From the NCBI GenBank assembly GCA_031396115.1, contig JANNKD010000221.1, positions 6,731 to 30,730 of the forward strand: a stretch of 24,000 bases of DNA, given 5' to 3'. The DNA is from Gammaproteobacteria bacterium. Lineage in GTDB: Bacteria > Pseudomonadota > Gammaproteobacteria > Nevskiales > Nevskiaceae. The position numbers were made by a program, and so were the translations under genes. Shown in pieces: positions 4,899-11,252 of this stretch. Each line of letters starts with the position of its first letter. The first letter of the stretch is position 1. The notes under the pieces were generated by a model. The model was not told the origin of the DNA, made no database searches, and saw only the letters and a program-made list of their open reading frames with translations.

Positions 4899-5999
4899 AT
4901 GCGGATCGCCTACCTGTGCAAGCGGCGCTACATGAGCAAGGACGTGATCCTCGACCGCTACGCGCGCCTGTACGAGATTCCGTTCCAGCTCGCGCGGCTC
5001 GGCCATCCGGTGCGCGCGTGGTGCCTGCAGTACCGCGCCTCCGGCGCGGGCCGCTGGACGCACGACGCCGGCGCGGCGAGCGTCGAATGGATCGCGCGCG
5101 GGCTGGTGCCGGGCCTGGCGGCGTATCCGTTCCGGGTGCTGCGCGAGATCGAAGCGTTCGCGCCCGACCTGCTGATCGGCGCGTCCGACATCCCGCACGT
5201 GGTGCTGACGGCATGGCTGGCGCGGCGCCTGGGCAAGCCCTGGGTGGCCGACCTTTACGACAACTTCGAAGGCTTCGGCCAGGCGCGCATCCCCGGCTTC
5301 GTCGGTGCACTGCGCCGTGCGGTGCGCGGCGCCGACGTCGTGCTGACGACCAGCGAGCCGCTGCGCGAGTTTGTGCTCGAGGAATACGGCGCGCGCGGTG
5401 AGGTGATCGCGATGCCCAGCTCGGTCGACAAGGCCGTGTTCCGCCCGCGCGATCGCGCGCAGGCGCGCCGCGCGCTGGGGTTGCCGGAACAGGGCCTGCT
5501 GGTCGGCACGGCCGGCGGCCTGAACCGCGACAAGGGCATCGGCGATCTCTACGACGCCTGGCGCGTGCTGCGCGACGCCGAGCCGGACGCGCACCTGGTG
5601 CTGGCCGGCCCGGCCGAAGGCGGCTTCCCGCCGCCGGCGGGGCCGCGCGTGCACGCGCTCGGCGCGCTGGCGCACGCGCGCGTCGCCGAGCTGTTCAGCG
5701 CGCTGGACGTCGGCGCGATCTGCGTGCGCGACACGCCGTTCGGCCGCTACTGTTTTCCGCAGAAGGCCTACGAGATGCTGGCCTGCGAGCTGCCGGTGGT
5801 GGCCGCGGACGTCGGCGCGATGGGGCGGTTCCTGTCGGGCACGCCCGGCGCGTTGTACCGCCCCGGCGACGGCGCCGACCTCGCCGACAAATTGCGCGCG
5901 CAGCTCAAGGCGCGCGCGCGGCCCGACGTGCCGATCGACGGCTGGCAGGACCTGATCGGGAAGATCGAGCCGAAGCTACGCGGCCTGGCGCGCGCCTGA
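4899..5999 (+). CDS. Family 4 (GT-B, group 1) glycosyltransferase
   Basis: 366-aa ORF. C-terminal nucleotide-sugar-binding region with an EX7E-like motif (FPQKAYEMLACELPVVAADVG). Overall GT4 layout, beginning MRIAYLCKR... The 3' end overlaps the convergent GT4 gene by 24 nt. Confidence 0.75.
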   Translation: MRIAYLCKRRYMSKDVILDRYARLYEIPFQLARLGHPVRAWCLQYRASGAGRWTHDAGAASVEWIARGLVPGLAAYPFRVLREIEAFAPDLLIGASDIPHVVLTAWLARRLGKPWVADLYDNFEGFGQARIPGFVGALRRAVRGADVVLTTSEPLREFVLEEYGARGEVIAMPSSVDKAVFRPRDRAQARRALGLPEQGLLVGTAGGLNRDKGIGDLYDAWRVLRDAEPDAHLVLAGPAEGGFPPPAGPRVHALGALAHARVAELFSALDVGAICVRDTPFGRYCFPQKAYEMLACELPVVAADVGAMGRFLSGTPGALYRPGDGADLADKLRAQLKARARPDVPIDGWQDLIGKIEPKLRGLARA

Positions 6000-7205
6000 A
6001 CCTGCGCTGGCCACGCAGGCCTCGATGAAGTCGCCGTAAGCGTTCGCGATTCGGGTCCAGTCGAAGCGATCGCCGGCGAAAGCGCGGATGCGTGCGGCGC
6101 TCGCCGCCGCCGCGGCGGGATCCTCCAGCAGCCGCAGCACGCCGGCAGCGAGCCGCAAGGGGTCGCCTGCCGGGACGGTTACTTCGCTGCGCGCGGGTCC
6201 TAGCAGGTCTTCGATGCCGCGCACGTCCCCGGCCAGCACCGGGCAGCCGCAGGCGACCGCTTCCATCAACGCCACCGGCAGGCCTTCCTGGTCGCCGGAT
6301 TGCTCGCGCACGAACGGCGCCACGAACAGCGCCGCGCGCCGATAAAGGTCGGGCAAGTCCTTTTGCTCGCGAGCTCCGAGGAAGCGCACCGCGTCGCCGA
6401 GCGCGAGCTGCTGCGCGAGCGCACGCAGCGCCGGCTCCTCGGGGCCATAGCCGGCGATGTCGAGCACGACACGCGGCCGCTTTGCGCGCACCGCCGGCAG
6501 CGCTTCCAGCAGGTGCCGCAGTCCTTTCTTTGGCACCAGCCGGCCGACGAACAGCAGGCGGTCCGGCTCGCGCACGGCCGTGGCATCCGGCACGAAGCGT
6601 CCGCGCAGGTCCACGCCCATCGGGATCACGTCGAGGCGGGCGGGGCGCAGGCCCAGCCGCTGCGCCTCGTCGCGCATGGCGGTGCTGACGACCGTCATGC
6701 CGGCGGCGCCCGCGGCGATGCGGCGCTTGAGCGCGGACAGCAGTCGCCCGCGCAGCCCATAGAGGTCGCCGCCGTGCGAGGTCAGGATGCAGGGTGCGCC
6801 GAGCGCGCGCGCCACCAGTCCTTGCGGGACCAGCCAGTGCGCGTGGATCGCATCGAAGCGCTGCTGGTGCAGCAGGCGGCGCGCGGCAAGATATTGCGCC
6901 AGCACGAAGCCGGGCAGCAGCAGCCATTTCCACGGCGAGCGGCGCAGGTTGGCGACGATGCCGCCTCCCGCCACCAGCGTCTGCCAGCGGCGCGGCGCGT
7001 AGCGGTAGCGCACGACTTCGACGCCGTCGAGGGTGCCGCCCGGCTGCGCGTCCGGCGCGTCCGGCACGAGGGCGACCACGTCGAAGCGCCGCGCGAGGCG
7101 CTTGCACAGTTCGTGGACGAAGCCCGGCTCGGGATCGCCGGGCCAGCGCGGGTAGGTGGACGCCAGGACCAGGATCCGCAGCCGCGCGGCGGCCCCGGCG
7201 GCCAT
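5976..7205 (-). CDS. Family 4 (GT-B, group 1) glycosyltransferase
   Basis: 409-aa ORF. RILVLASTYPRWPGDPEPGFVHELCKRLARR is a typical GT4 N-terminus. GGDLYG; LLFVGRLVPKKG; EX7E motif QEGLPVALMEAVACGCPVLAGDV. The start codon overlaps the upstream stop by 1 nt (TAATG on the minus strand). Confidence 0.8.
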   Translation of the reverse strand: MAAGAAARLRILVLASTYPRWPGDPEPGFVHELCKRLARRFDVVALVPDAPDAQPGGTLDGVEVVRYRYAPRRWQTLVAGGGIVANLRRSPWKWLLLPGFVLAQYLAARRLLHQQRFDAIHAHWLVPQGLVARALGAPCILTSHGGDLYGLRGRLLSALKRRIAAGAAGMTVVSTAMRDEAQRLGLRPARLDVIPMGVDLRGRFVPDATAVREPDRLLFVGRLVPKKGLRHLLEALPAVRAKRPRVVLDIAGYGPEEPALRALAQQLALGDAVRFLGAREQKDLPDLYRRAALFVAPFVREQSGDQEGLPVALMEAVACGCPVLAGDVRGIEDLLGPARSEVTVPAGDPLRLAAGVLRLLEDPAAAAASAARIRAFAGDRFDWTRIANAYGDFIEACVASAGSGARQAA

Positions 7206-8080
7206 TAGTCCGGCTTGCGCTGGCTGTAGAGCAGCTGCGTGATCTGCTCCGAAACCAGCCCGATCAGGAAGATGAGCACCGAGCTGGTGAACAGCAGCAG
7301 CCCCAGGTTGGTGAAGCGGCCCAGCGTCACGTACGTGTACGTGTAGTAGCCGGCGCCCAGCAGGAAGAACAGCAGGCTGACAGGCGCGAAGATCTTCAGC
7401 GGCGAGTACAGCGTGCCGACGCGGAAGATGATCAACAGGAAGCGCCCGCCGTCGCGCAGGATGCGGATGTGGCTCTTGGCGCCGGCGGGCCGCCGCGCCA
7501 CCGGCACCGGCACGTACGCCACGGAGTAACCGGCGCGCAGGAACGCCAGCGTGATCGTGGTCGGGTAGGAGAACCCGTTCGGCAGCAGCGGCAGGAAGTC
7601 GCGGAACACGTTGGCGCGCGCGACGCGAAAGCCCGAGGTCAGGTCGAGGATGCGCACGCCGGTGATCCAGGTCGCGAGCGTGTTGTAGACCCAGTTGGCC
7701 AGGCGCCGGAACACGCTGGCGTGCATCGCGCCGGAGCGCGCGCCCACGGCCATGTCGTAGCCCGCGTCGATTTGCGCCAGCAGCGCCGGCAGGTGCTCGG
7801 GGGCATGCTGGCCGTCGGCGTCCATGAACGCCAGCAGGTCACCGGTGGCCGCGCGTGCGCCGGCCTTGATCGCCGCGCCGTTGCCGCGGCTCACCGGATG
7901 GCGCACCACGCGCGCGCCGGCCGCGGTCGCGATCGCGGCGGTGTCGTCGGACGAGCCGTCGTCGACGATGACGATCTCCGCGTCCGGCAGCGACGCCCGC
8001 AGGCCCGCCACCAGGGATCCGACGGTTGCCGCTTCGTTCTTGGCGGGGATGACCACCGAGACTTTCGGGGTGCTGCTCAT
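7205..8080 (-). CDS. Polyprenyl-phosphate glycosyltransferase, GT2 (GtrB/ArnC/DPM1-like)
   Basis: 291 aa. VSVVIPAKNEAATV...IVIVDDGSSDDT...FMDADGQH forms a GT2 catalytic core. Two C-terminal TM helices follow (IFAPVSLLFFLLGAGYY; LLLFTSSVLIFLIGLVSEQI). This architecture is characteristic of enzymes that load a single sugar onto undecaprenyl/dolichyl phosphate. Confidence 0.75.
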   Translation of the reverse strand: MSSTPKVSVVIPAKNEAATVGSLVAGLRASLPDAEIVIVDDGSSDDTAAIATAAGARVVRHPVSRGNGAAIKAGARAATGDLLAFMDADGQHAPEHLPALLAQIDAGYDMAVGARSGAMHASVFRRLANWVYNTLATWITGVRILDLTSGFRVARANVFRDFLPLLPNGFSYPTTITLAFLRAGYSVAYVPVPVARRPAGAKSHIRILRDGGRFLLIIFRVGTLYSPLKIFAPVSLLFFLLGAGYYTYTYVTLGRFTNLGLLLFTSSVLIFLIGLVSEQITQLLYSQRKPD

Positions 8081-8119
8081 GATGTCCGGTGCCCGCGTCG
8101 GCTCATTTGACGGCGCATT

Positions 8120-10727: not shown

Positions 10728-10741
10728 GGGGCCGGAGAATG

Positions 10742-11197
10742 TCAGTCCCCGCGGCAGGCGGCGGGCAGGTACTTCCGGTCGACCATCGAGCCGCTGGCTC
10801 CCACGCCGCAGGCCCAGAGCCTCCCGCCGGTCGTGGTTTCGTAGGTCATGGTCTTGCCTTGCAGCAACTTCGAAACGTTGGTCGTCTTGAACAGTGCGGT
10901 CAACGAAAGGGACAGGCTGGTCGGGGAGGCGGGCGAACCCGGCGTGTAATAAATCGCCGTCACGTACTTGCCGGCGAGGGTGGCCATGACCGAACCGGGC
11001 CCGCCCGGCCAGATGCCCGTGTTGGCGTAGGCCTCCGCCAGTGGTGTCTTGGCACCGCCGAGCAACTGCATCGCTTCGCCGGCCTGCGCGCGCGCGATGT
11101 AGTCCTGGTAAGCCGGAATCGCAATTGCCGCGAGGATGCCGATGATTGCCACGACAATCATCAGTTCGATCAGCGTGAAACCCTTGCTGGAACGCAT
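10742..11197 (-). CDS. pilA: Type IVa pilin (PilA family), copy 2 (paralog)
   Basis: Track ORF 10742..11248 trimmed to the ATG at 11197, giving [41 protein letters not shown]: a 6-aa leader like copy 1 and 151 aa in total. Cys130...Cys148 loop. A G-rich RBS (GGGGGGAA) lies just upstream. Confidence 0.85.
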
Positions 11198-11237
11198 GCA
11201 GTTCCCCCCGGAAAAGATCCAAGACATTACATCGGAG

Positions 11238-11252
11238 GCAACGGGCATGCCA
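11238..11252 (-). promoter_or_regulatory. Sigma-54 (-24/-12) promoter for pilin copy 2
   Basis: The minus strand reads TGGCAT-GCCCG-TTGC, with the same TGGCAT...TTGC elements and N5 spacing as the copy-1 promoter. The -12 element is about 41 nt upstream of the ATG at 11197. Confidence 0.65.

Follow-up and report, generated by a model that had tools for sequence, protein, structure and literature searches.

A TfpW-like GT-C protein and an ArnC/DPM1/GtrB-like glycosyltransferase encoded after tandem pilin genes: a candidate pilin O-glycosylation module in a Nevskiaceae bacterium

To our knowledge, TfpW is the only characterised pilin-modifying enzyme of the GT-C glycosyltransferase type, with one known donor, D-arabinofuranose, in a few strains of Pseudomonas aeruginosa. 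Here we describe a locus in a 24,000-nucleotide stretch of DNA (hereafter, the window; contig JANNKD010000221.1 of assembly GCA_031396115.1, positions 6,731 to 30,730) from a gammaproteobacterium of the Nevskiaceae. In this locus two type IVa pilin genes are followed, on the same strand, by genes for a 644-amino-acid (644-aa) membrane protein, a family 2 glycosyltransferase (GT2) and a family 4 glycosyltransferase (GT4). The locus is likely to be a TfpW-type pilin O-glycosylation module. Because the GT2 synthase is linked in the operon, we propose a different donor for it, supplied by an ArnC/DPM1/GtrB-like synthase and not by the D-arabinofuranose pathway.

TfpW of P. aeruginosa is 646 aa long and has 11 predicted transmembrane (TM) helices and a periplasmic C-terminal tetratricopeptide repeat (TPR) domain; its periplasmic loop 1 bears a DDx motif that is essential, and its loop 4 a proline-rich motif, YX6PFX7P (bioRxiv 10.1101/2020.04.19.049825). 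Its gene is located just after pilA and is needed for pilin O-glycosylation, and homologs are found beside pilA in several genera (bioRxiv 10.1101/2020.04.19.049825). The gene for the 644-aa protein shares the site of tfpW of the group IV strains Pa5196 and PA7, which encodes a pilin O-arabinofuranosyltransferase: after the major pilin gene and on the same strand. By the published descriptors the two proteins are alike in length, in having about 11 TM helices, in the DD pair of loop 1, in the TPR C-terminus and, of the proline-rich motif, in the Y-x6-P core only. ArnT and the TPR domain of OGT are among the structural matches of the 644-aa protein, as was reported for TfpW. The window differs in lacking tfpX, in having two pilin genes and in lacking the full YX6PFX7P. 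It differs also in the source of the donor: the polyprenyl-phosphate-D-arabinofuranose of TfpW comes from an unlinked PPPRS/DprE1/DprE2 cluster with a GtrA-like protein, whereas in the window a GT2 synthase lies within the operon. The D-arabinofuranose genes (PPPRS, DprE1, DprE2) are absent from the 24 kb window, though they could lie elsewhere, as they are unlinked in P. aeruginosa. In a census of genes neighbouring the transferase at 28 related loci, the 25 commonest families do not include those of this pathway (DprE1, UbiA-type), though rare cases may occur.

In cadherin O-mannosylation by TMTC1-4 with DPM1, and in the actinobacterial PMT/Ppm1 systems, a GT2 makes a lipid-phosphate sugar that a GT-C enzyme with an acidic first loop transfers to Ser/Thr of a protein. 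This is the logic proposed for the window, and TMTCs, like the 644-aa protein, bear C-terminal TPR repeats. The window protein, however, has no detectable Pfam signature of PMT, PMT_2 or DUF1736, and its apparent substrate is a dedicated neighbour, the pilin. GtrA/GtrB/GtrC, ArnC/ArnT/ArnEF, streptococcal GtrB/PgtC2 and the pentofuranose systems (Kelly et al. 2024, PMC11127046) place an ArnC/GtrB-like synthase beside a GT-C enzyme, as here, but the window lacks a GtrA- or ArnE/F-like flippase, its acceptor would be a protein and its transferase has a TPR domain. TfpO/PilO, PglL and TfpM modify pilins too, and tfpO likewise lies just after pilA, but these enzymes belong to the Wzy_C family and transfer undecaprenyl-diphosphate-linked oligosaccharides built on the product of a phosphoglycosyl transferase. 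Wzy_C is absent from the 644-aa protein, and Wzy_C_2 was matched by two of 50 homologs (best E 0.24), so the distinction from TfpO/PglL systems drawn in an earlier sequence-only reading of this DNA stands. The principal features of the locus are as follows.

11238..11252, minus strand: sigma-54 (RpoN) type promoter TGGCAT-N5-TTGC before pilA1 (consensus match, 41 nt upstream of ATG 11197)
10742..11197, minus strand: pilA1, type IVa major-pilin-like gene (Pfam Pilin E 7.7e-16, N_methyl E 3.6e-10)
10633..10647, minus strand: sigma-54 type promoter TGGCAT-N5-TTGC before pilA2 (consensus match)
10133..10585, minus strand: pilA2, second type IVa pilin gene (Pfam Pilin E 1.3e-16)
10084..10107, minus strand: intrinsic terminator-like hairpin (10-bp stem with 8 GC pairs, 4-nt loop, T7 tail)
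8120..10054, minus strand: gene for the 644-aa integral membrane glycosyltransferase, predicted GT-C fold and periplasmic C-terminal TPR domain, a TfpW-like candidate (models, homolog alignment)
7205..8080, minus strand: GT2 of 291 aa with a C-terminal transmembrane hairpin, ArnC/DPMS/GtrB/AglJ type (Pfam Glycos_transf_2, NCBIfam, PDB)
5976..7205, minus strand: GT4 of 409 aa (GT4a), cytoplasmic Leloir glycosyltransferase (family matches; TAATG with GT2)

All five genes lie on the minus strand at these coordinates, and their codon-position GC follows the pattern of real genes (GC3 0.83-0.95 in a genome of about 70% GC). Both pilins match Pfam Pilin and N_methyl, which agrees with the sequence-only reading of two type IVa pilin genes followed by a polytopic protein. 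The pilA1 open reading frame (ORF) spans 10742-11248, but ATG 11197 is the likelier start because the sigma-54 promoter occupies 11238-11252. The predicted leaders are MRSSKG|F in PilA1 and MKMQKG|F in PilA2; mature PilA1 would have 145 aa with a C-terminal Cys pair, and mature PilA2 144 aa. A Ser/Thr/Pro-rich stretch is found in both (GSPTTPTNP in PilA2). The Ser/Thr content of pilins linked to related transferases (median 22% outside the N-terminal helix) was dropped as evidence, as there was no control set of unlinked pilins.

The gene for the 644-aa protein starts 78 nt past the pilA2 stop. A gap of 39 nt (8081-8119) separates it from the GT2 gene, whose stop overlaps the GT4a start in the sequence GAC-TAATG-GCC; both the gap and the TAATG overlap, previously noted, were confirmed by direct reading of the sequence. 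By this overlap GT4a is predicted to be translationally coupled to GT2. The consensus TGGCAY-N5-TTGC has exactly two matches in the 24 kb, one per pilin gene, with 0.1 expected by chance. The strong hairpin with its T-run is located between the pilA2 stop and the start of the transferase gene. A terminator between pilA and accessory genes has been described in other species (PMC11841053), and its placement in the window matches that in the pilin accessory loci of those bacteria. Neither pilB/C/D nor pilS/R was found within the 24 kb window, unlike most related loci, and the sigma-54 promoters would therefore depend on an activator encoded elsewhere.

The 644-aa protein had no Pfam, NCBIfam or PDB sequence match. 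Searches of the PDB with phmmer and with a family profile returned TPR matches only and none for the membrane domain, for which Pfam and NCBIfam had no model; Pfam likewise had none in 50 homologs. As all routes based on sequence comparison failed, the fold assignment rests on predicted structure. In an AlphaFold2 model of the whole protein, with the homolog alignment as input (pLDDT 93.3, pTM 0.92), about 11 long helices cross the membrane before residue 420, an all-helical TPR domain follows at about 421-644, and the first extracytoplasmic loop forms short helices right after the DD pair. A Foldseek search of the PDB with the whole model placed STT3 at the top, interspersed with TPR proteins. 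Because of this mixture the N-terminal domain was modelled separately (residues 1-425, pLDDT 89.9). Its 12 best PDB matches were all GT-C enzymes, namely STT3 (several), PIG-U, PglB, PimE and ArnT, with TMq 0.37-0.51 and probabilities of 0.96-1.00. ALG6 followed at rank 14 (probability 0.63), and all matches outside the GT-C class had probabilities of at most 0.23 and TMq of at most 0.18. By these models, the N-terminal domain is predicted to be a GT-C fold.

Conservation agrees with the acidic first-loop motif reported earlier. FQLDDYPN forms residues 37-44, and within D40-D41-Y42 the two aspartates lie just past TM1, 6-7 residues beyond the helix end in the model; K6 and R12 precede TM1, and a cytoplasmic N-terminus is predicted. 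In an alignment of 50 homologs with identities to the window protein down to 32%, the invariant residues are D40, D41, R74, H103, K205, E206, E351, H363, R364, Y366, C481 and C524. Those of the membrane domain (D40, D41, R74, K205/E206, E351/H363/R364) are at positions typical of GT-C catalysis and phosphate binding. The fold check proposed for this protein thus returned a predicted GT-C fold with a conserved acidic loop. In loop 4, Y282 is invariant and P289 is at least 90% conserved, giving the Y-x6-P core of the TfpW motif; P289 is followed by W290 and the next conserved proline is P302 (x11, not x7), so that the full YX6PFX7P is unmatched. The helical C-terminal domain noted from the sequence turned out to be a TPR domain: consensus TPR proteins (E 3e-22) and the TPR domain of OGT are among the matches of the family profile, and TPR_14 is matched by 38 of the 50 homologs. 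C481 and C524 both lie in this domain, and the invariant pair fits a periplasmic location.

Homologs of the same length number in the thousands (more than 2,400 proteins at 90% clustering) and are labelled ‘hypothetical’, ‘tetratricopeptide repeat protein’ or, for several JGI entries, ‘protein O-mannosyl-transferase’. A profile of the GT-C domain (residues 1-425) reached 55,185 clusters at E≤1e-3 and 8,220 at E≤1e-30 in a search of 1.84 billion representatives clustered at 50% identity. These residues thus define a very large membrane-domain family that has no Pfam or NCBIfam model.

In order to learn whether the gene order is conserved, as the sequence-only reading had suggested should be surveyed, one genome per species was scanned for the 644-aa protein. 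The scan confirmed at least 591 relatives of this protein, and the best 80 loci (designated by L numbers) were compared with the window proteins by tblastn. These 80 come from Ectopseudomonas, Acinetobacter, Dyella, Arenimonas, Andreprevotia and Undibacterium, among others, and from many uncultured Gamma- and Betaproteobacteria; hosts of the family at large also include Stutzerimonas and numerous uncultured lineages, sulfur-oxidising and marine. Pilin adjacency is conserved across many orders of the Gamma- and Betaproteobacteria. A same-strand pilin gene lies directly upstream of the transferase gene in 56 of the 80 loci (49 of the 67 with enough upstream sequence), and a divergent one in five more. 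A GT2 ortholog (49-74% identity) is directly downstream in 43 of 70 assessable loci; the pairing of GT-C and GT2 genes is thus frequent, not obligatory. Pilin and GT2 genes flank the transferase gene on both sides in 29 of 59 loci, and the order pilin-GT-C-GT2 is far beyond chance. A GT4a ortholog follows GT2 in 13 loci. Clustering of all ORFs revealed PilS/PilR upstream and PilB/PilC/PilD as other recurrent neighbours, and because of these the linked pilin is taken to be the major pilin of a canonical locus. Of the 80 loci, 69 contain one or more type IV pilus genes (pilin, pilSR or pilBCD).

Tandem transferase paralogs, two or three in number, occur in 17 of the 80 loci. They share 22-52% identity, and the duplications are therefore old. 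Three-copy arrays of GT-C/TPR genes with one shared GT2 follow the pilin gene or genes in L025, L074 and L080. Two-copy arrays are found in L019, L024, L029, L039, L040, L042, L050, L052, L059, L064, L066, L069 and L071, mostly without an adjoining GT2 ortholog. In L037, L044, L045, L057 and L058 (Pseudohongiella, SAR86 and relatives) the same parts are arranged in another way: the GT-C and GT2 genes are divergent from two pilin genes of about 132 aa that are oriented like pilBCD. The closest genomic relative, L001 of a gammaproteobacterial metagenome-assembled genome, resembles the window in leuS (90% identical), in both pilins (84%) and in GT2 (74%), whereas the GT-C transferase is only 57% and GT4a 54% identical, and the gene after GT4a differs. 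Such a contrast would be expected, from these comparisons, of a fast-evolving or frequently exchanged surface-glycan locus. No plasmid-borne homolog was found, and PADLOC defence models gave no match for the three enzymes.

The GT2 was described in the sequence-only reading as of the GtrB/ArnC type with two C-terminal TM helices, and the family comparisons bear this out. It matches Pfam Glycos_transf_2 (PF00535, E 1e-32), carries its DAD motif within FMDADGQH and has two hydrophobic segments at about 214-242 and 259-284 that form the C-terminal TM hairpin. Its best NCBIfam matches include AglJ (6e-39, full length), PpgS (2e-26), ArnC (3e-21) and a dolichyl-phosphate hexose transferase. In the PDB it matches ArnC (1e-17) and DPMS (1.5e-14) over the catalytic domain, and GtrB (1.4e-6) over the full length; residues 3-278 align to residues 24-309 of the GtrB 5eke chain, and identity to E. 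coli ArnC is 34%. By these matches the GT2 is assigned to the polyprenyl-phosphate sugar synthase type, and polyprenyl phosphate is its putative acceptor. Its adjacency to the transferase gene suggests that it makes a polyprenyl-phosphate donor for the GT-C enzyme. GT4a is, by its family matches, an ordinary soluble Leloir enzyme.

The following mechanism can be proposed. The sigma-54 promoters would drive each pilin gene, presumably under control of PilS/PilR, which are encoded just upstream in many related loci, and the terminator after pilA2, judged from its sequence and from precedent, would pass only a fraction of the transcripts into the glycosylation genes. At the cytoplasmic face the GT2, as its family membership indicates, would transfer a sugar from a nucleotide sugar to polyprenyl (undecaprenyl) phosphate. 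The lipid-linked sugar may be extended by GT4a and by products of a convergent operon described below (glf, GT4b, GT2 and an FkbM methyltransferase), and a Wzx-like protein encoded at the window edge plausibly moves it to the periplasmic face. There the TPR domain would hold the globular domain of the membrane-anchored pilin, and the enzyme would use Asp40/Asp41 of its first periplasmic loop to attach the sugar to Ser/Thr of the pilin prior to assembly. One candidate glycosylation site is the stretch rich in Ser/Thr/Pro that occurs in both pilins. The donor, the acceptor and the sites named here are all presumptive. A possible role of the modification is protection from pilus-specific phages, as reported for TfpW.

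Several points weigh against a TfpW-type module. We infer pilin glycosylation in the source organism from sequence only, and homology to TfpW from shared descriptors only; homolog searches seeded with Ectopseudomonas and Acinetobacter members found closer relatives only and not P. aeruginosa TfpW (AAM52060.1), and a cluster look-up of ten Acinetobacter proteins did not lead to the published TfpW homolog WP_130134296.1. The Foldseek E-values of the GT-C matches are modest (8e-4 to 0.14), and the family profile has no sequence similarity to E. coli ArnT (hhalign probability 0.2). All 23 NCBIfam matches of the GT2 are below their curated cut-offs (for AglJ, 134 versus 325 bits), and 27 of the 70 assessable loci have no GT2 ortholog adjoining the transferase gene. 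A simple three-component scheme leaves the cytoplasmic GT4 without a function, and the neighbouring wzx/glf/GT operon might just be a common cluster for O-antigen or exopolysaccharide. Taken with the predicted fold, the TPR domain, the pilA adjacency and the GT2 type, all of which agree with the candidate pilin O-glycosylation system first suggested, we nevertheless regard pilin glycosylation by this module as likely.

The GT-C and GT2 enzymes might instead modify O-antigen, lipopolysaccharide (LPS) core or lipid A, or exopolysaccharide, like GtrB/GtrC or ArnC/ArnT, and the position of the pilin genes would then be meaningless. In keeping with this, the GT2 is closest to ArnC among solved structures, an operon with wzx-like, glf, GT4 and GT2 genes typical of polysaccharide loci abuts the cluster, lptE is about 3 kb away, and L006, L030, L061 and L062 have no type IV pilus gene despite ample flanks. 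The sequence-only reading had left this alternative open, but same-strand pilin adjacency over many orders and the type IV pilus genes in 69 of the 80 loci now make it very unlikely. Moreover, GtrC and ArnT lack the TPR domain that the 644-aa family always has, and the best structural matches are protein-modifying oligosaccharyltransferases and not ArnT.

An enzyme that acts on protein would not have to be dedicated to pilin. It could be a general periplasmic protein O-glycosyltransferase of the PMT/TMTC kind with many substrates, the pilin being one target or a co-regulated neighbour, as the JGI labels on several homologs would imply. A GT-C domain with a C-terminal TPR domain and a DPM1-like GT2 is indeed the architecture of eukaryotic TMTC with DPM1, and the reach of the N-terminal profile (55,185 clusters) places the pilin-linked members in a much larger family. 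However, no Pfam match to PMT, PMT_2 or DUF1736 was found in the window protein, nor were these among the 25 most frequent families of the 50 homologs at E≤1. Dedicated pilin accessory genes such as tfpO and tfpW are placed in the same way, closely after the major pilin gene, on its strand and past a terminator, and diverged paralogs in tandem accompany the pilin genes in the 17 loci mentioned above; we consider a general enzyme unlikely. Finally, the 644-aa protein might have no catalytic activity and act through its TPR domain as a chaperone or assembly factor for the pilin, with unrelated glycosyltransferase genes downstream. TPR domains do mediate protein binding, and the pilin accessory proteins TfpX/Y/Z are non-enzymatic (PMC11841053), but the membrane domain holds a cluster of invariant residues at positions typical of GT-C catalysis and phosphate binding, and a GT2 co-occurs in 43 of 70 loci, which makes such a role extremely unlikely.

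The TfpW-type module probably extends beyond the five genes. On the plus strand, a second, tightly coupled operon converges on GT4a.

24-905, plus strand: Wzx-like flippase, C-terminal part (3' end of an ORF at the window edge)
902-1999, plus strand: 365-aa ORF with no Pfam family match
1999-2754, plus strand: FkbM methyltransferase
2751-3788, plus strand: soluble GT2
3785-4888, plus strand: UDP-galactopyranose mutase, glf
4899-5999, plus strand: second GT4 (GT4b)

From 24 to 5999 the starts and stops of this operon overlap by 4, 1, 4 and 4 nt, and GT4b overlaps the 3' end of the minus-strand GT4a by 24 bp (5976-5999). The operon probably supplies or extends the glycan, and so would be part of the system. 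GT4b orthologs are linked to the module in six other loci. In Acinetobacter bouvetii (L033) one strand carries pilA, GT-C, GT2, an ABC exporter, three GT2 genes, glf (69% identical) and GT4b. In Ectopseudomonas khazarica a Wzx-like gene comes after the GT2, with GT4b (51% identical), GT4 and FkbM genes convergent beyond it, and in L076 wzx-like, GT4b, GT4 and FkbM genes follow GT2. Since parts of the abutting operon recur with the module in other genera, the glycan may exceed one sugar. The sequence-only reading had suggested that the module may be self-contained; the linkage of the synthase and a GT4 to the transferase holds, while self-containment probably does not, given that the convergent operon probably belongs as well.

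A variable set of glycan genes is attached to the module. The first four or fewer ORFs after GT2 in 44 loci comprise 125 ORFs, among them 23 GT4, 16 S-adenosylmethionine (SAM) methyltransferases, nine further GT2, seven MprF-like flippase domains, six GDP-mannose dehydratases/epimerases, four ABC transporters and four sulfotransferases. Phosphoglycosyl transferase families were not among the 25 most frequent in this census, in which rare ones are possible. In loci without a GT2 ortholog the neighbours are methyltransferases, GT4, MprF-like domains, DegT aminotransferases and other GT2 enzymes, and neither DprE1 nor UbiA-type families reach their top 25. SAM methyltransferases are among the commonest neighbours of the module (16 of 125 and 14 of 114 ORFs, over 72 loci), and a 241-aa membrane-associated one comes right after GT2 in seven loci. 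Proteins with the MprF-like flippase domain (LPG_synthase_TM) occur 13 times near the module in 72 loci.

The absence of a visible GtrA-like flippase, also claimed from the sequence, proved correct for that type: a search of the window and the 80 related loci (81 in all) for recurring ORFs of 95-175 aa with at least three TM segments near the module yielded no small flippase of the GtrA or ArnE/F kind. A Wzx-like flippase is nevertheless visible in the ORF at 24-905 (plus strand), and candidate flippases vary between loci, being Wzx-like, ABC or MprF-like.

Many linked Leloir enzymes, together with the lack of a priming phosphoglycosyl transferase among the frequent families, make transfer of a whole oligosaccharide worth testing, although we hold it to be rather doubtful. 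In such a pathway the GT2 would prime undecaprenyl monophosphate, GT4a, GT4b, the second GT2, galactofuranose (through glf) and FkbM would extend it, the Wzx-like protein (ABC or MprF-like elsewhere) would flip the product and the GT-C/TPR protein would transfer the oligosaccharide to the pilin. In the archaeal AglJ/AglB system, which modifies the S-layer from dolichyl monophosphate, Leloir glycosyltransferases and methyltransferases cluster with the synthase, and among NCBIfam models the GT2 matches AglJ best. The GT2, however, scores 134 bits against the AglJ cut-off of 325 and AglB is an N-oligosaccharyltransferase, so that the resemblance is only a lead for this model. If true, it would define a bacterial O-oligosaccharyltransferase pathway without a phosphoglycosyl transferase, paralleling archaeal AglJ/AglB chemistry, and the hypervariable glycan island attached to it would serve to vary the pili in defence against phages.

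Returning to the TfpW-type module in general, its type is already known and it very probably decorates pili; the GT2 donor route would be new for pili, and we found no description of a GT2-linked form in the searchable literature. The survey suggests that the TfpW architecture is very widespread beside pilA, and most of the examined loci wire the transferase to an ArnC/DPM1-like synthase and variable sugar genes and not to the arabinose pathway. If true, the proposed function would widen the scope of GT-C enzymes in bacterial protein O-glycosylation and offer a compact, portable cassette of three genes (pilin, transferase and synthase) for studies of acceptor selection by TPR domains. It would also bear on resistance to pilus-specific phages and on glycoengineering.

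Other features of the window lie outside the module. The genes leuS and lptE (11335-14524, plus strand) are divergent beside pilA1. Further on, tRNA-Ser(CGA) (18454-18541, plus strand) is followed by a stretch of lower GC (0.57-0.59 versus about 0.70; window positions 18454-20500). The 523-aa ORF that it contains (18855-20426) encodes DUF6035 and a CoiA-nuclease-like domain and has no PADLOC match. The stretch looks like a small islet inserted at tRNA-Ser(CGA).

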